Positions 521-7,246 are shown, counted from the first letter of the stretch. The stretch is DNA of 56,865 bases from Bacteroidales bacterium (GCA_021740045.1 JAIPAP010000005.1:1-56865); one strand, 5' to 3'. The notes: generated by a model from the letters alone, not told the origin. Translations and numbers: made by a program.

Positions 521-1618
521 TTAACAACCGCCGGCTACTTCAATAGTTTCGGCCTGCTTTTCGGCGCCTTCTTTTTTCACTGCGGTTGAAGTGCTCACCT
601 CATAGTCATGAATTTTTTTGGGCGAAAAGGCATGCCATTTCTTGGCTCCTCGCTCGCGCATTAAACCGTTCATAAAGCTGTTGGCACCATATACCAGCGA
701 TTTGGCATCATACCCTATCATGTTCAAATAGGCCGTAACAAAAGCACTATGTTGACCTGTAAAGCAATATGGCACCACTGTTTCGTCTATAGGCAGGGTA
801 TTCAGGTAAGTAGAGCGTCCCAATGATTTTTTCGGATCGTACTGAATAGCGCCTGGAATATGGCCTTTTTCATATTTAGCTTTGGGCCAGTAGTTTACAA
901 TGTAATAGTTGTCGCCGTTTTGGAAAAGTTCATCAGCTTTTACAGTGAAAGGCTTGAAACCTTTGCTAAGCAATTCCTGGGCACGCTCACGCAGGATTTC
1001 CATGCCCATTTCCTTGCCGGTATTGAGCTTGGGATAAGACGTAGGAGATGCTTTTTCAATGGCCTTGGTTTCCAGTTGATCGGCGTATTTATTGGAAATT
1101 TTCTTCAGCCATTTTTTCTCGGCTGTTTTCCTGTCCCAGGAGCTCATGCCCCACTTCATATCGTAAACATTATCATAGCCCAGCAAACGAAGGATAGATG
1201 TGGCAAATCCCGCCGATTGCCCGCTATAGCAAACCATTACAATGTGGCTGTAGCTGTTGGGATTGATTTCATTCTCAAAATAATCGATCAATTTGTTCAT
1301 GCCTACATTTACCGCGCCTTTAATGTGGCCGGCCGTATAGTCTTTTGATTTACGGATATCGATAATGTGAATATTGGCATCCAGATTCTTATGCACTTCC
1401 GAGGAAGCTATCATACTCGGAACTTTGGGGCTGTTGATAAAATCCCCGGTTTCCTCAATGTAGGTTAAAAGCTCGTCGAATTCATCAACAGTGCTTTTTA
1501 CCTGTTCTTGCTTTTCAGCTTGTTTTGATTCTTCACCCTGGTCATCGCAACTGGTTATTACCAGAAATACCGGTAGCATTAACAAAGCTACCCACAATTT
1601 TGCTCGTTTCATATACAC
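521..1618 (-). CDS. Lipoprotein with two tandem rhodanese (sulfurtransferase) domains and a C-terminal ...AETIEVAGGC tail
   Basis: 365-aa ORF. Signal peptide with lipobox LVITS-C. Two rhodanese active-site loops retain Cys (VMVCYSGQSAG and VPYCFTGQHSA). Cys is the last residue. The start could be Met3 (1612). Confidence 0.85.
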   Translation of the reverse strand: MYMKRAKLWVALLMLPVFLVITSCDDQGEESKQAEKQEQVKSTVDEFDELLTYIEETGDFINSPKVPSMIASSEVHKNLDANIHIIDIRKSKDYTAGHIKGAVNVGMNKLIDYFENEINPNSYSHIVMVCYSGQSAGFATSILRLLGYDNVYDMKWGMSSWDRKTAEKKWLKKISNKYADQLETKAIEKASPTSYPKLNTGKEMGMEILRERAQELLSKGFKPFTVKADELFQNGDNYYIVNYWPKAKYEKGHIPGAIQYDPKKSLGRSTYLNTLPIDETVVPYCFTGQHSAFVTAYLNMIGYDAKSLVYGANSFMNGLMRERGAKKWHAFSPKKIHDYEVSTSTAVKKEGAEKQAETIEVAGGC

Positions 1619-1683
1619 TAAAGGTTTAAAAGTTGAAAATTATTTATTGATTTCATTTTTTAAATTGATCACCATTTCAAGGC

Positions 1684-2280
1684 TTAGCATCCACCTTCAA
1701 CTTGAATGGTTTCGGTTTGCACCGGCTCGGGCTTGGCCGGAGCTTGTTCCTGTCCGCTGAAATATTTGGTGAAGTCGAATTTCGGTTTTTCCGATTTATA
1801 ATGGCCGTAACTGGGCACATAGTTTTTTAAAACATATTCCTTGGCGTATTCATACCCTCCGTAAAGAAAATGCACATTATCGTAACCCATTTGCTTAAGC
1901 AAAAGCCAGGCATCGGAGGCTTTAACTTCATTTTTGGAATACAGGACATTAATTTTCGTGTCATCCTTAAAAGTAACTTTATGGGATTTGTTGAGCAGCT
2001 CATCAAAAGGTATGTTCACTGCTTGTGGAATATGGGAGCGGCGAAATTCACCGGGACTCCTCAAATCGATAAAGCGATAATCATCCTTTTTGGAGGAGTT
2101 GATAATACCGTACAATTGCTGTAGCGAAACCCCTTCCTCAATTTCTTCTTGGCTTAGACTTCCTGCTGCCTGCTTTGGGTTCAACTTATAGTTATTGGAA
2201 TAGATCTCATTAACGATCAGCGCTACGATCATTACCACCGTAAACACCAATGCCGTGTATTTTAAACTGTTTTCTTTCAT
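1684..2280 (-). CDS. N-terminally membrane-anchored single rhodanese-fold protein lacking the active-site Cys, with a C-terminal ...TETIQVEGGC tail
   Basis: 198-aa ORF. One N-terminal hydrophobic helix (ALVFTVVMIVALIV). Rhodanese-like core (FIDLRSPGEFRRSHIPQAVNIP ... INVLYSKNEVKASDAWLLLKQMGY) with no Cys in the catalytic loop. The only Cys in the whole protein is the terminal residue. Confidence 0.8.
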   Translation of the reverse strand: MKENSLKYTALVFTVVMIVALIVNEIYSNNYKLNPKQAAGSLSQEEIEEGVSLQQLYGIINSSKKDDYRFIDLRSPGEFRRSHIPQAVNIPFDELLNKSHKVTFKDDTKINVLYSKNEVKASDAWLLLKQMGYDNVHFLYGGYEYAKEYVLKNYVPSYGHYKSEKPKFDFTKYFSGQEQAPAKPEPVQTETIQVEGGC

Positions 2281-2298
2281 AATCGTATCAATTTTGAA

Positions 2299-3534
2299 TT
2301 AACAACCACCTTCAACCTGGATAACTTCAAATTTTGGAGCCGACTTATTACCACCGGTTTTCACTTCCCGTTCCATACCACGGAAATATTCACTGGCATT
2401 TTTCCTGAAACGGTAAGTATCCAGAGCCTCTTTATAAAGTGGATTCACCGGCTTTGGTTTATCATCATAATGGAAGATGGTTTCCACCATGTTGTTCAAG
2501 CCTCCTTTTAATACATAGAAGTTCTTATAGCCTAATCGTTTATAGATCATCCAGGCTTTATCAGCCAGCATACCACTGTTTGAATAAAACACCTTGATCA
2601 TCTCCTCGCTTTCATCTTCGGGGTTGAGAAAATCAATCATCTGGCGGTTAGCGATATTTTCAAGGGGTACATTTACCGCTTTTGGCAGGCTGAATTCCCG
2701 GTACTCTTCCGATGGACGCACATCGATCAGCCGGAACTCATCATCACGGTCCATAATTCTAAAGGCCACTTCATCGGGGGTGATGTAATGCTCATCGGAG
2801 TTGAGCTCCGTTAAAAGCTGTTTGGCAGAGATCTCATTGATTCTTGCCTGGCGGTTGGCAGGGATAAAAAGGATGATCACACCCAAAGCCACCAGAACAA
2901 ATGCAGCCATGCCTGTCTTGGCCTGCCGGTTGCCGGTAACATCAAGCTTAAGCTTATTCATGCGGTTTTTCTCAATATACTCACCAATTCCAAAAGCCAG
3001 TAAAGCAATAATGATCAACAGCAAGGCAAAAAATCCCCTGGAAATTCCCAGTGAATCATAAACCTTTATCCCGCCAAAGGCACTGCTTTTGTAAAAGCTC
3101 TCTATCGCCGGATAACTTTCGCCCCAGATAAACACACCCAGCAATATACCAGCGATAAATACCATAGCATCGATGCGGCCAATGGTGGCTGCGGTAATAC
3201 TGGTTCCCGGGCAAAATCCGCCGAGCAGAAAACCCACACCCATGATCGCACCGCCAACAATAGCCGGCCACAGGAATGTAGGATTTACATAAAGGAAAGA
3301 GGCATCGACCCATCCAAAGTAATCGAAAAAGATGATCCCGATCATGGCTGTGATGGCAGCGGTAAAAAATACCTTTAACACCACCAGGTCGTAACCGTAA
3401 AAGACACCCACCAGTTTACGGGATGAAGAAAAGCCGGCCTGCTCCAGGATATATCCGAAGAAAAATCCCAGCACAATGGCAATTATATAGTTGAATTCAC
3501 TTCCTATTATTTCAAAAGGTACTAAGGGTCCCAT
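2299..3534 (-). CDS. YeeE/YedE-family (sulfur-transport domain) membrane protein fused to a rhodanese-like domain, with a C-terminal ...FEVIQVEGGC tail
   Basis: 411-aa ORF. The N-terminal ~230 aa are polytopic and Gly-rich with the GGFCPGTS motif typical of YeeE/YedE repeats. A further TM helix follows. The rhodanese-like module (LIDVRPSEEYREFSLPKAVNVP ... IKVFYSNSGMLADKAWMIYKRLGY) has no catalytic Cys. Cys is the last residue. Confidence 0.85.
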   Translation of the reverse strand: MGPLVPFEIIGSEFNYIIAIVLGFFFGYILEQAGFSSSRKLVGVFYGYDLVVLKVFFTAAITAMIGIIFFDYFGWVDASFLYVNPTFLWPAIVGGAIMGVGFLLGGFCPGTSITAATIGRIDAMVFIAGILLGVFIWGESYPAIESFYKSSAFGGIKVYDSLGISRGFFALLLIIIALLAFGIGEYIEKNRMNKLKLDVTGNRQAKTGMAAFVLVALGVIILFIPANRQARINEISAKQLLTELNSDEHYITPDEVAFRIMDRDDEFRLIDVRPSEEYREFSLPKAVNVPLENIANRQMIDFLNPEDESEEMIKVFYSNSGMLADKAWMIYKRLGYKNFYVLKGGLNNMVETIFHYDDKPKPVNPLYKEALDTYRFRKNASEYFRGMEREVKTGGNKSAPKFEVIQVEGGC

Positions 3535-3552
3535 AGTTAATACATTTAATGG

Positions 3553-4071
3553 TTATATCCAGAATTTTCGCATAAAATAGGCCACCAGGAAACCGGTTCC
3601 AAAAATGGCCATCATTGTTATAAAACCGGCCGATGAAAGCACAGCCATTCCACTCAAGGCTGCTCCACTGGTACAGCCTCGGCCAAGTTGTGAGCCTATA
3701 CCAAAAAGTACTCCGCCCGATAAAGCAATCAAAATTCGACCACCGGCGCTGAGGCGCGGTCCGCGTTCAATTTTAAACTTCAAGCGGTCGCTAACGGCTC
3801 CTGAAAAGAAAGAACCCACAACCACGCCCAACGCCAGGAACACCAGCCATGACTTCATCGGTCCAAACTCTCCCCCCAGGTATTGGGAATAAAAAGCGGA
3901 AGATTCGGCATGTTCGGGATTAACGGCATTCACAATACTTACCACTACATTCTTTAAAGCTCCGCTGGCACCCAGCCCACGACCGGACAGGTAAAACGCC
4001 GCCAGCAATACCAGGCCAAGGAAAAACCCGGCCAGGTAAGGATTCATATGCTTAACTGTTTTCTTCTCCAT
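3553..4071 (-). CDS. YeeE/YedE-family sulfur-transport membrane protein, half-size form
   Basis: 172-aa ORF with about 4 hydrophobic Gly-rich helices and the motif QLGRGCTSGA. It sits 19 bp from the other YeeE-type gene, so together they form a split transporter. Confidence 0.85.
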   Translation of the reverse strand: MEKKTVKHMNPYLAGFFLGLVLLAAFYLSGRGLGASGALKNVVVSIVNAVNPEHAESSAFYSQYLGGEFGPMKSWLVFLALGVVVGSFFSGAVSDRLKFKIERGPRLSAGGRILIALSGGVLFGIGSQLGRGCTSGAALSGMAVLSSAGFITMMAIFGTGFLVAYFMRKFWI

Positions 4072-4759: not shown

Positions 4760-6340
4760 TTATTTGTTAGCACTTGCTTTTTTACGGCTGCTAGCCGAAA
4801 CTGCCCGCAGTGTGGCATGTATCACCACCCCGATGAGCGATAAAATGATCAGTATGCTGCCCATAGTATCGAGGGCTGCGTTATAATCGCGGCCGGGCAT
4901 ATAGAAATCCTCCAGCTTAGCCAGTCTGCTATTGCTACGTGTATGGCATTCTTCACATTTTACCGATTGATCGGCCGGAGAAACCATATGACTGAGGGGC
5001 AGGGTCATTTCTGTTGAGATAAAGCCATAATCACCACTATATGGCAAACCAATGTATTCCATTCCTTTTTCAATGGAAAGCGCCCAATTGAAGTCTTTCC
5101 ATAATGCGCCCTGTCCTTTTTCCTCATCCCATAATTTCATCTGTACCAGCCGGTTATACTTTTTATCATAAGGTTGTTTCCCCTTGTGGATCTTCACCGG
5201 CCATATCTTGGCATCTTCATCGCTGTACTTACCTTTTAAGGTATTGATCTGAACGGGAGTTTCATCTATCTCGTCGGATAACAAGTAATGATCGGCAGTG
5301 CCGTTAAACCAGATGTAATCGGGCTTAAGATTTTGCCCCCATTCAAAAGAGCCTTTTATGGAGAGATACTCATGCTGTCCCTCATCGTTATCAATGGAGT
5401 AAGGTTTGCCATCCTCGTCGAGCTTTGTGGCTGTTGACCAGTCCCACCGGGTTTTTGTAGGATTTGCCTTTGCATAACGGGGAATATGGCAGGTTTGACA
5501 AGCAACCTTAATGGTGTGCTCGTTGAGAAGGTTATCTTCATGCGGACGAGCTCCGTGGCAGTTGGTGCAGGTAGCCCTGTTGCGATCCATGGAAGATACA
5601 CCATAATACTTACCTTTCATCTGATGCTTTTCGGTGATGTGGCATTCAACGCAGGCCATGTCGGCGCCATCTTTGGCCATATGCACATCCACGTCTTTTG
5701 TTGTATTTAAGAGAGCTTTATCCAAAGCGCCGTTTTTCACGTTGTTACCCCCGGCGCTGAAAAAGTGGCAAATACCGCAATTTTCCTTTTTCGGGCTGCC
5801 CACGCTTTGGGCAACAAAACCCAAATCGATGCTGGGATAAGGATAACCCGCGGCACCTTTGGCTTTACGGTATGTGCCCGAATTATCATGACACACCAGG
5901 CAGTCGATATTCGACTGATCGTTAAAATCGAAAGATTTATCTTCCCATCCGTAACCAATATGGCAACGTGTACAAGTACCTTCGCTACCGGCAATACCGG
6001 TACAGAAATTATTGATGAGGTTTTTTTTGCCCAGGTAAGTCACTCCTCTTCCTTTAATGTGAGCATCTCTTTCCCAGTTCCAATGAGCATTGCTCATCAC
6101 CTCCTTACCTCTTTCGGTATGACATGATAAGCAAGCTTTGGTAACCTCATGAGCATTGTTAAAATCTTTTTGTAATTCCTCGAATTTGGAGTGGTCAACC
6201 GAAGCATCTTGATACATTGGGTCCTGTTTGCGGGGAACATAGTCGGTTTCATCATCCCCGTTACCTCCCATGCCTGCTATGCCCATAAGGATAAAGGGCG
6301 GCACCAGGAGAATCAGTAATACGGTTATTAGTCTTTTCAT
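4760..6340 (-). CDS. Octaheme c-type cytochrome, tetrathionate-reductase (Otr)-like family, with N-terminal signal/anchor and a C-terminal TM helix
   Basis: 526-aa ORF with exactly eight CxxCH motifs (CLSCH, CTRCH, CLVCH, CGICH, CVECH, CTNCH, CQTCH, CEECH). N-terminal hydrophobic segment. C-terminal helix ILIILSLIGVVIHATL followed by basic residues. The octaheme status is certain. The Otr-family assignment rests on size, motif spacing and context. Confidence 0.85.
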   Translation of the reverse strand: MKRLITVLLILLVPPFILMGIAGMGGNGDDETDYVPRKQDPMYQDASVDHSKFEELQKDFNNAHEVTKACLSCHTERGKEVMSNAHWNWERDAHIKGRGVTYLGKKNLINNFCTGIAGSEGTCTRCHIGYGWEDKSFDFNDQSNIDCLVCHDNSGTYRKAKGAAGYPYPSIDLGFVAQSVGSPKKENCGICHFFSAGGNNVKNGALDKALLNTTKDVDVHMAKDGADMACVECHITEKHQMKGKYYGVSSMDRNRATCTNCHGARPHEDNLLNEHTIKVACQTCHIPRYAKANPTKTRWDWSTATKLDEDGKPYSIDNDEGQHEYLSIKGSFEWGQNLKPDYIWFNGTADHYLLSDEIDETPVQINTLKGKYSDEDAKIWPVKIHKGKQPYDKKYNRLVQMKLWDEEKGQGALWKDFNWALSIEKGMEYIGLPYSGDYGFISTEMTLPLSHMVSPADQSVKCEECHTRSNSRLAKLEDFYMPGRDYNAALDTMGSILIILSLIGVVIHATLRAVSASSRKKASANK

Positions 6341-6484: not shown

Positions 6485-6498
6485 TTGATCCGGATCAG
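6485..6498. promoter_or_regulatory. CRP/FNR-type operator TTGAT-CCGG-ATCAG in the divergent intergenic region
   Basis: The sequence ttgatccggatcag matches the FNR consensus TTGAT-N4-ATCAA at 9 of 10 positions. The inner 12 bp (tgatccggatca) form a perfect palindrome. It lies 53 bp upstream of the regulator ATG (6551) and 145 bp upstream of the cytochrome ATG (6340). Confidence 0.45.
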
Positions 6499-6550
6499 TT
6501 ATTCATATGATAAAATTGTATTTTTATCGTTTAATCTGAAAATTCAATCA

Positions 6551-7246
6551 ATGGCCGAACCTACCCTAACATCTAATTGCCTGGAATGCTCAGAAAACGG
6601 GCATGCCTGTTTAAAAAACCTGGCAACCGATCAGTTAAAAATAGTGGATAAGGCCCGGACGGAAGTTACCTTTAAAAAAGGCGAGATCTTATTTAAACAA
6701 GGTGCTTTTGCATCGCAGATCATGTTTATTCGCAAGGGGCTTGTGAAAATATACCTGGAAAATACATCCCGCGACCTTATTCTTAAAATAGTCCCCGAAG
6801 GTAATTACCTGGGACTTTCATCACTTTTCGGGAAAAATGTTTTTCATTATACGGCCGCAGCGTACGAGCCTACCAGCGTTTGTATGATCGAAAGAGAGAC
6901 CTTTAACCAAATGATACTCGAAAATGCCACCTTTGGTGCCGAGATCATTAAAACCTTGAATGATGAGACCATTCAAAGTTACGATCGTTTATACAGCCTT
7001 ACCCGAAAGCAATTGCATGGCCGGTTGGCTGACATACTTTTATGCTTAGCAAATACCATTTATAAAAATGACAAGTTTAAGATCCCCATATCGCGTAAAG
7101 ACCTTGCCGACCTCACCAGCATGGCAACCGAGAGTGTGATCAGGATACTGAAGGATTTTCGTAACGAAGGGATACTTTCTCTCAGCGGTAAAACCCTTGA
7201 AATTCATGATAAGGACCGTTTACAAAAAATAAGTCGTATTGGATAA
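6551..7246 (+). CDS. Crp/Fnr-family transcriptional regulator with an FNR-like N-terminal Cys cluster
   Basis: The ORF track starts at TTG 6485. I prefer ATG 6551 (MAEPTLTSNCLECSENGHAC...). It has a cNMP-binding-like beta-roll (FKKGEILFKQG...) and a C-terminal HTH (RKDLADLTSMATESVIRILKDF). Cys10, Cys13, Cys20 and Cys111 mirror E. coli FNR Cys20/23/29/122. Confidence 0.85.
   Translation: MAEPTLTSNCLECSENGHACLKNLATDQLKIVDKARTEVTFKKGEILFKQGAFASQIMFIRKGLVKIYLENTSRDLILKIVPEGNYLGLSSLFGKNVFHYTAAAYEPTSVCMIERETFNQMILENATFGAEIIKTLNDETIQSYDRLYSLTRKQLHGRLADILLCLANTIYKNDKFKIPISRKDLADLTSMATESVIRILKDFRNEGILSLSGKTLEIHDKDRLQKISRIG

Follow-up and report, generated by a model that had tools for sequence, protein, structure and literature searches.

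Gly-Gly-Cys tails on rhodanese-fold and YeeE proteins as putative sulfur-carrier arms beside periplasmic reductases of Bacteroidales and related bacteria

How anaerobic bacteria supply sulfur in reactive or sparingly soluble forms (S0, polysulfide, thiosulfate and tetrathionate) to their periplasmic reductases is poorly understood, and so is the physiological role of the octaheme cytochromes of the tetrathionate reductase (Otr) family and of the split YeeE/PmpAB channels. A stretch of DNA from a Bacteroidales bacterium (GCA_021740045.1 JAIPAP010000005.1:1-56865; 56,865 nucleotides (nt), hereafter the window) ties these topics together by a cysteine-tipped arm: three adjacent genes on its minus strand (521..1618, 1684..2280 and 2299..3534) encode proteins of rhodanese fold, one of them fused to a YeeE half-channel, that all end in Gly-Gly-Cys (GGC), the cysteine bearing the terminal carboxyl group. 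What could such a tail be for? On balance, the conserved sequence features and the gene context lead us to favour the view that the GGC arms would be SoxY-like, protein-tethered carriers of sulfane sulfur, serving a quinol-linked periplasmic sulfur reductase and the split YeeE channel.

The C-termini read, in gene order, ...KQAETIEVAGGC, ...VQTETIQVEGGC and ...PKFEVIQVEGGC*. Among the 264 open reading frames (ORFs) of at least 60 amino acids (aa) in the six frames of the window, these three are the only ones ending in GGC, which bears out the original prediction of three neighbouring proteins with a shared Cys-terminal tail. A genome scan with one genome per species gave at least 600 matches, and a YeeE relative is encoded in 595 of those listed; the best 80 loci, all from different species, were used as the sample for gene order. 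Here, a GGC end was present on one of 870 ORFs (at least 90 aa) outside the conserved module described below; this lone ORF stands in the slot of the small anchored rhodanese and is therefore a divergent member, leaving an effective background of 0/869. The motif is thus not equally frequent on unrelated proteins, and the observation of the tail is confirmed far beyond chance. Of the I-x-V-x-G-G-C motif first proposed, G-G-C-COOH proved to be general, whereas I-x-V-x is confined to the close clade. Selenocysteine read-through past the tail Cys was considered and ruled out: all three stops in the window are TAA, TGA is not enriched in the relatives, and the stop codons following the tail in related loci (70 TAA, 27 TGA, 17 TAG) show the same mix as those of the other operon genes, so that there is no hidden selenocysteine extension.

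The fusion protein (2299..3534) has more than 2,000 relatives. Of these, 121 were retrieved, the most distant at 42% identity, and 117 end in GGC; the tail is thus conserved in orthologous loci, as the original prediction required. Residues G409, G410 and C411 are invariant in an alignment of 35 fusions, as is the pore cysteine C108 within GGFCPGTS, and the 20-30 residues preceding GGC are hypervariable among the homologues. The rhodanese loop of the window protein (FYSNSGM, nt 2569-2589) has Tyr at the catalytic position and lacks Cys, and a loop Cys occurs in 0 of the 35 aligned sequences. The fusion of Salinivirga holds two Cys in all, the pore Cys and the terminal Cys. At two near-identical loci (L034:3031-6319 and L038:8429-11717) the lipoprotein and the fusion are both tail-less and the next ORF overlaps the fusion, which looks like a frameshift or an assembly error and not a true loss.

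For the small anchored protein (1684..2280), a word-index search matched the query alone, and a full HMMER search with the 198-aa sequence against 1.84 billion representatives was used, yielding 317 matches at E <= 1e-10. Among the best 149 of these 317, 93 end in GGC, 10 in GGCx (one of them GGCGG) and 13 in another ..GC such as EEEEGC; about 110 of the 149 are single-domain proteins of about 200 aa, giving a share of 93 in about 110 for the small anchored rhodaneses. The window protein has Tyr114 at the catalytic site (LYSKNEV, nt 1924-1944), followed after the fold by a linker of about 48 aa. Across an alignment of 113 members, 85% have Tyr at the catalytic position and 0% have Cys, and 49 of the 113 contain no Cys other than the terminal one. 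Given that the catalytic Cys is lost and the terminal one is so often the only one left, the latter must be the functional thiol. The same alignment shows an invariant D72-x-R74 and a high conservation of H83, A87, N89, P91 and Y114 (window numbering), which suggests that this pseudo-rhodanese keeps a binding pocket, for an anion or a partner, despite the loss of the catalytic Cys. Variants of the tip were also encountered among the homologues of this protein and of the lipoprotein (GGCGG, GGCS/GGCG/GGCD, ..EEEEGC, ..SSCG/..PSCG and ..EEDEEGC; P0184, P0169, P0291, P0290, P0156, P0309); in some lineages the Cys can therefore lie one to three residues from the end, and an acidic run can replace the glycines.

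The lipoprotein (521..1618) is the only one of the three arm proteins of the window with active rhodanese loops, CYSGQSA (nt 1211-1231) and CFTGQHS (nt 746-766), and two catalytic loops are retained by 111 of its 120 homologues. The expectation that rhodaneses use an internal-loop Cys thus holds for the lipoprotein; the other two are pseudo-enzymes with Tyr in its place, which the original prediction overlooked. The ends of the 120 homologues are GGC in 55, GGCx in 8, ..SCG in about 12 and ..EEGC in 3, and about 40 are tail-less. A rule by which the tail would occur only inside the module was tried and failed, with tail-less copies lying in a Psr-type module and beside a GGC-tailed paralogue plus Otr.

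All three proteins belong to the rhodanese superfamily by their PF00581 E-values (2.4e-28 for the two domains of the lipoprotein, 3.9e-16 and 1.1e-13 for the others), and in the AlphaFold2 (AF2) models the rhodanese domains are confident, with a predicted local distance difference test (pLDDT) of 88-98. The rhodanese domains of the three families are about 25-35% identical to each other. A Pfam scan of the three arm proteins returned Rhodanese only, plus Sulf_transp on the fusion, and no SoxY match; no model of NCBIfam or Pfam captures the GGC tail. A Foldseek search with the AF2 model of the fusion found rhodanese folds only, neither recovering the YeeE fold of the half-channel nor a SoxY fold. 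Nowhere in the full-text literature searched, which contains few subscription journals, was a GGC end found described for rhodanese or YeeE proteins, so that the absence is not proof; this agrees with the original prediction, which knew of no described rhodanese family with such a tail. Judging from these comparisons, a carrier-arm cysteine appears to have moved onto a rhodanese scaffold and onto a transporter, an arrangement apparently undescribed before.

On which side of the membrane do the arms lie? The fusion consists of a PmpB-like YeeE N-half, a central helix, a K/R-rich cytoplasmic loop (nt 2911-2973), an extra transmembrane helix (nt 2860-2910), the pseudo-rhodanese, a helix and the disordered arm. 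Its N-terminus carries no positive charge, and the loop after the fifth helix, EKNRMNKLKLDVTGNRQAKTG, holds six K/R before the extra helix. Full-length TsuA has nine transmembrane helices (PMC11582611), and its orientation is taken here as N-out, C-in; from this architecture, the loop charge and the extra helix, the rhodanese domain and the arm are therefore placed in the periplasm. A lipobox-like motif is found in 93 of the 120 lipoprotein homologues, and the lipobox Cys is conserved in related loci, so that the lipoprotein is exported. Its longest ORF begins at GTG 1618 (MYMKRAK) and the database copy at ATG 1612 (MKRAK); the latter, giving 363 aa, is likely the true start and fits a signal peptide better. 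In its AF2 model (predicted template modelling score 0.84, core pLDDT about 95) the tail, residues 346-363, has a pLDDT of only 33-35, and the tail of the fusion, residues 391-411, one of 34-47 next to a confident rhodanese domain. The arms are thus predicted to be three flexible, Cys-tipped tails of about 20-50 residues on the periplasmic face, beside a periplasmic cytochrome, Otr being of the c type.

The company kept by these genes is informative with regard to their function. The 80 loci come from Bacteroidales, Lentimicrobium, Prolixibacteraceae, Ignavibacteria, Kapabacteria, Chlorobiota and LCP-89. In 45 of them, arranged as in the window (type A), the octaheme cytochrome Otr and a cytochrome b, adjoining in 45 of 45 cases, are combined with a YeeE half and the YeeE-rhodanese-GGC fusion, the lipoprotein and the anchored rhodanese-GGC being optional; the minimal conserved unit of Ignavibacteria and Kapabacteria is a reductase, a YeeE half and one YeeE-fused arm. 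Otr is missing from the other 35 loci (type B), of which 26-28 encode a trio of a PhsA/PsrA-like subunit with molybdenum-bis(pyranopterin guanine dinucleotide) (Mo-bisPGD), a 4Fe-4S protein and NrfD/PsrC instead (NF012032, 461 bits for the Mo-bisPGD subunit). Here the reductase trio is followed by two unfused YeeE halves and then by one or two anchored rhodanese-GGC proteins, which correspond to an unfused version of the helix-rhodanese-arm part of the fusion. Type B is seen, for instance, at L002:5505-11878, L004, L010, L013, L016 and L086, often with MobA nearby, and both modules occur together in three Otr loci (L031, L069, L080). In two further loci, L087 and L088, Otr and cytochrome b adjoin a Cys-tipped rhodanese lipoprotein, and the genes read there include no YeeE. 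From the two module types and these two loci it follows that the arms have as their constant partner a periplasmic, quinol-linked reductase of sulfur compounds, which belongs to one of two unrelated types. Next in constancy comes the split YeeE channel, whose C-half is present in 76 of the 80 loci. The pairing with an octaheme cytochrome and YeeE that was originally proposed describes the 45 Otr loci, but the PsrABC/PhsABC-like molybdoenzyme of the 26-28 Otr-less ones had been overlooked. Besides Otr with cytochrome b, the PsrABC-like subunits and the YeeE halves, no families recur among the conserved neighbours in the 80 loci, SoxZ, SoxXA and SoxB included.

We hypothesize here that the six-gene operon of the window would form a periplasmic, quinol-driven system for the reduction of sulfur compounds that acts on protein-tethered sulfur. 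Menaquinol would supply the electrons, which cytochrome b would hand on to the membrane-anchored Otr octaheme cytochrome. The terminal thiolate of an arm would be loaded with sulfane sulfur, in persulfide or polysulfide form or as an S-thiosulfonate derived from tetrathionate or thiosulfate; the sulfur could be taken up directly or be passed on by the catalytic cysteines of the lipoprotein rhodanese. Being slim, the Gly-Gly-Cys tip could then thread into the buried active site of the reductase (Otr, or PsrA in type B), where the arm-bound sulfur would be reduced and set free as sulfide, and the arm on the YeeE half might exchange sulfur, in either direction, with the pore cysteines of the YeeE heterodimer. 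The whole would amount to a reductive counterpart of the SoxYZ carrier system. The SoxY-like carrier arm of the original prediction is partly supported in this respect by the invariant GGC, the disordered linker, the periplasmic location, the loss of the catalytic Cys, the co-variation of the tails and the gene context; homology to SoxY is not part of it, and the sulfur adduct is a matter of inference.

SoxY carries all intermediates of the Sox pathway on a glycine-flanked Cys of a mobile arm, which serves a haem enzyme and a molybdoenzyme. The system described here is likewise periplasmic, with a glycine-flanked Cys on a mobile peptide, haem or molybdoenzyme partners and a YeeE-like channel (SoxT in the Sox case), and a few relatives of the window proteins even end in GGCG, GGCS or GGCGG (P0184). 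In contrast to SoxYZ, however, the window proteins are built on a rhodanese scaffold without a SoxY or SoxZ fold, their Cys is the very last residue and not part of GGCGG, their arms are much longer (about 20-50 disordered residues) and sometimes fused to a transporter, and their partners are reductase-type enzymes (Otr, Psr-like) of anaerobes and not SoxXA, SoxB and SoxCD. The resemblance to SoxY is thus, on the sequence evidence, a functional one, short of family membership. A second precedent is Sud of Wolinella succinogenes, a periplasmic rhodanese-like protein that transfers polysulfide sulfur and feeds PsrABC. It shares with the arm proteins the periplasmic rhodanese fold and the presentation of sulfane sulfur on one Cys to a quinol-linked reductase, as proposed here, and type B even shows the same enzyme pairing; this pairing of exported rhodaneses with Psr is found in most of the 35 Otr-less loci and is absent from the window. 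Sud uses the Cys of its active-site loop, whereas two of the window proteins have the tail-tip Cys instead, plus a membrane tether.

As to the channel, the two YeeE halves match PmpB (N-terminal) and PmpA (C-terminal), each with a conserved pore Cys, and like PmpAB and TsuA they have a dedicated single-Cys partner protein, which is required by or proposed for the channel. TsuB, the partner of TsuA, is a cytoplasmic TusA-like protein; the partner in the window is a periplasmic pseudo-rhodanese that bears its Cys at the C-terminus and in many cases forms one protein with the channel. No TusA-like gene was present in the operon or among the recurrent neighbours of the 80 loci. For the YeeE-like SoxT, it has been proposed that sulfur moves from the SoxY Cys along the cysteines of the pore (PMC11582611), and the arm lends direct support to this recent idea that a carrier cysteine supplies YeeE-type channels with sulfur. 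The otr gene of lucinid symbionts has a divergent soxY-soxZ pair immediately downstream (PMC11237559). Here, too, otr stands beside a carrier-arm protein, but the carrier of the window, with its rhodanese scaffold, is non-homologous; the lucinid otr-soxY(S3)-soxZ cluster looks like a non-orthologous equivalent of the present arrangement. Furthermore, a periplasmic multihaem cytochrome of Geobacter was shown to be a polysulfide reductase (PMC13510729), and in G. sulfurreducens a rhodanese-family lipoprotein, ExtH, is likewise encoded beside the periplasmic multihaem sulfur-compound reductase ExtKL (MccSep) (NF040901; PMC13510729). The similarity of ExtH is weak (E=0.006) and the cytochrome there is of a pentahaem family with selenocysteine; an identity of the window cytochrome with MccSep/ExtKL was rejected, this being a different cytochrome family and a precedent only (PMC13510729). 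The Tso selenoprotein operon was also rejected, the matches to NF045694 (TsoB) being weak, far under the cut-off, and the architecture unrelated.

The tails themselves vary in a way that depends on the locus. In the eight residues before GGC, paralogues of the same locus share 2.33 of 8 identities and orthologues across loci 1.15-1.82, the same-locus value being reached by 0 of 2000 label permutations; examples of same-locus tails are PRGGC on all three proteins of Perlabentimonas, VSGGC/ISGGC/VSGGC in Salinivirga and EEEEGGC three times at L033. The tails of Psr-type modules are polybasic (P-K-K-K-K-x-x-x-GGC), with a net charge of +4.4 over the last ten residues (n=33) versus +1.1 in Otr modules (n=76; Mann-Whitney p=3.5e-13), and the contrast persists within genomes that hold both modules. 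We take co-variation and charge as a supportive, but not settling, sign that the arm tip may be recognised by its partner. This caution has a reason, which belongs to a set of points that weigh against the carrier interpretation: both statistics ignore phylogeny, and the Psr and Otr tails represent different orthologous groups. Also, about one third of the lipoprotein homologues are tail-less, one of them at the end of a Psr-type (type B) module (L086), so that the arm of the lipoprotein is not obligatory in some lineages. The AF2 single-chain models show no confident docking of the arms, and the K/R counts around the anchor of the small rhodanese are ambiguous (2.0 before, 2.3 after), so that its outward orientation rests on the analogy with the fused form. 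Covalent sulfur loading, the substrate and docking into Otr or YeeE are steps that we infer, and reduction as the direction of electron flow is deduced from the PhsC-like cytochrome b and from the occurrence in anaerobic lineages only. Finally, the OTR of Shewanella oneidensis also reduces nitrite and hydroxylamine in vitro.

Could the arm serve the YeeE channel only, as a periplasmic gate, a plug or the first relay Cys in the transport of thiosulfate or zero-valent sulfur? It would then be an outside counterpart of the cytoplasmic TsuB/YeeD, and the reductase would be nearby as maker or consumer of the transported compound. The fusion of arm and channel fits this, as do the two Cys of the Salinivirga fusion, the single YeeE-fused arm of the minimal unit in Ignavibacteria and Kapabacteria, and the essential role of TsuB for TsuA together with the proposed SoxY-to-SoxT transfer (PMC11582611). 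We nevertheless consider it unlikely, given the Cys-tipped lipoproteins beside Otr at L087 and L088, where the genes read include no YeeE, the dependence of the tail charge on the reductase type and the number of arms, since three per operon appear excessive for gating one pore. Somewhat less probable still is a terminal Cys acting as a redox or ligand switch, either as resolving Cys of a disulfide or as a removable axial ligand of haem or molybdenum, with a regulatory or protective effect on the reductase. In its favour, TsdA, SoxXA and MccSep have catalytic haems with a Cys ligand, and Otr keeps an active-site Cys (Cys113) in its NNFC. Flexible C-terminal redox tails are also known elsewhere, such as the Gly-Cys-Sec-Gly end of mammalian thioredoxin reductase, where Sec denotes selenocysteine; this tail resembles the arms in being flexible and in shuttling a glycine-flanked reactive chalcogen between a buried active site and the outside, but it belongs to an unrelated cytosolic enzyme and carries electrons, not sulfur atoms. 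Many members of the arm families, however, lack a second Cys for an internal disulfide, the same tail occurs beside two unrelated cofactors, haem and Mo-bisPGD, and no thiol-disulfide oxidoreductase is found among the conserved neighbours in the 80 loci.

A short conserved motif at the extreme C-terminus also recalls other sorting signals, and the tail might accordingly direct C-terminal lipidation, cleavage or a covalent linkage to the envelope or to a partner. This we regard as very improbable, given that the arm proteins already possess three kinds of anchor (lipobox, signal anchor and polytopic channel), that the stop follows directly after the Cys without the transmembrane helix or basic cluster of the sortase, exosortase and rhombosortase types, and that no E1-like, JAMM, protease or other candidate processing enzyme recurs among the neighbours in the 80 loci. 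The comparison with ThiS/MoaD-like processing, offered as an alternative in the original prediction, is not supported, the proteins having a rhodanese fold instead of the ThiS/MoaD beta-grasp and being exported or membrane-anchored, with no conserved E1-like, JAMM or protease neighbour. A functionless tail, shared by chance, low-complexity coincidence or recent duplication, would be in keeping with the common rhodanese fold and the near-identical tails of the close clade. It can be practically dismissed, and is in fact already refuted, by the near-zero background frequency and by an invariant GGC that spans phyla and hundreds of species in three families of such low mutual identity. This leaves tethered sulfur carriage as the reading we favour. 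Going further, the GGC arms on pseudo-rhodaneses may represent an unrecognised class of tethered sulfur carriers, a reductive "mirror image" of Sox in which two kinds of reductase would work on carrier-bound sulfur and the YeeE channel would have its own arm; this wider claim we advance as a serious possibility and somewhat short of an expectation.

If it were true, the Otr and Psr/Phs-like reductases of Bacteroidota, Ignavibacteriota and their relatives would use carrier-bound and not free sulfur, the Otr enzymes would gain a physiological substrate, and the split YeeE channel with its own arm would move carrier sulfur across the membrane. The result is a testable model of carrier-bound sulfur respiration as a reductive analogue of SoxYZ. 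The complete operon is present in two cultured organisms, Salinivirga cyanobacteriivorans L21-Spi-D4 (CP013118.1, about 2,936,900-2,942,650; lipoprotein WP_057953488.1) and Perlabentimonas gracilis (JAANIG010000019.1; WP_166364284.1), and the model is therefore directly testable. For annotation, an exported protein of rhodanese fold that ends in G-G-C-stop and is encoded next to Otr or Psr could serve as a simple marker that flags sulfur-respiring potential in abundant sediment and gut-related Bacteroidales. The labels that the databases give these proteins at present go no further than "rhodanese-like domain-containing protein", "thiosulfate sulfurtransferase GlpE" or "YeeE/YedE family protein".

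The operon comprises six closely packed genes on the minus strand, which run from 6340 to 521 and are separated by 12-18 bp, in one case by 65 bp (Table 1). Its cytochrome is a member of the Otr family: TIGR04315 scores 578 bits (cut-off 375), PF11783 matches, eight CxxCH motifs are present, and the similarity to S. oneidensis OTR (1sp3, E=3.7e-124) makes it a clear orthologue-level relative, with the conserved active-site stretch GKKN...NNFC at nt 6002-6031. Unlike S. oneidensis OTR, it has a C-terminal transmembrane helix (aa 494-511, nt 4808-4861) and a dedicated cytochrome b; the alignment with the 443-residue chain of 1sp3 ends at query residue 469, short of this helix. A C-terminal hydrophobic helix was also seen on the Otr proteins of L087, L088 and L089, and it would keep the enzyme at the membrane beside cytochrome b and the arms. 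The cytochrome b, presumed to be the quinol-oxidising partner of Otr, matches NF011582 (thiosulfate reductase cytochrome b subunit) with 109 bits, under the cut-off. The YeeE halves were assigned following PMC11582611; the fusion covers positions 12-195 and the C-half positions 172-309 of the 310 of PF04143, in agreement with a split PmpA/PmpB channel, and the C-half has one pore Cys, in GRGCTSG (nt 3664-3684). With the TsuA models, scores of 25-27 bits were obtained, far under the cut-offs of 400-645.

Table 1. Genes and arm tips of the operon and its divergent regulator (window coordinates)
Feature	Position	Strand	Remarks
Lipoprotein with two catalytic rhodanese domains, 365 aa	521..1618	minus	PF00581 twice; lipobox ITSC nt 1547-1558
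Arm tip ETIEVAGGC	524..550	minus	Cys last residue, TAA stop 521-523
N-terminally anchored pseudo-rhodanese, 198 aa	1684..2280	minus	PF00581; transmembrane helix aa 8-23
Arm tip ETIQVEGGC	1687..1713	minus	Cys last residue, TAA stop 1684-1686
Fusion of YeeE N-half and pseudo-rhodanese, 411 aa	2299..3534	minus	PF04143 + PF00581
Arm tip EVIQVEGGC	2302..2328	minus	Cys last residue, TAA stop 2299-2301
YeeE/YedE C-terminal half, PmpA-like, 172 aa	3553..4071	minus	PF04143 positions 172-309 of 310
Membrane di-haem cytochrome b, PhsC/HydC type, 220 aa	4084..4746	minus	PF01292 9e-31
Otr-family octaheme c-type cytochrome, 526 aa	4760..6340	minus	TIGR04315, PF11783, 1sp3
Crp/Fnr-family regulator, divergent	6485..7246	plus	PF00027, PF13545

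The divergent regulator carries an N-terminal C-x2-C-x5-C cluster (CLECSENGHAC) that resembles those of Fe-S oxygen-sensing Fnr proteins, and the Fnr and FixK models match under their cut-offs. It may regulate the operon under anaerobic conditions, but the link is weak, with only 6 Crp/Fnr homologues near the module in 4 of the 80 loci. In the type A loci of Ignavibacteria, a MerR-family regulator lies upstream instead (15 loci). A scan for promoters and terminators, using promoter models that do not cover Bacteroidota, gave counts at or below the shuffled expectation.

Tail-less lipoproteins were encountered in a further setting. Two such homologues lie outside any module and adjoin an outer-membrane protein of the Alginate_exp type. 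A beta-barrel gene of this family follows the tail-less lipoprotein at L081:8001-10435, L085:776-3214 and L088:7001-9472, and at L088 the pair has a GGC-tailed paralogue, Otr and a fusion of cytochrome b with PAS as neighbours. The Alginate_exp barrel may provide an outer-membrane entry route for a sulfur substrate.

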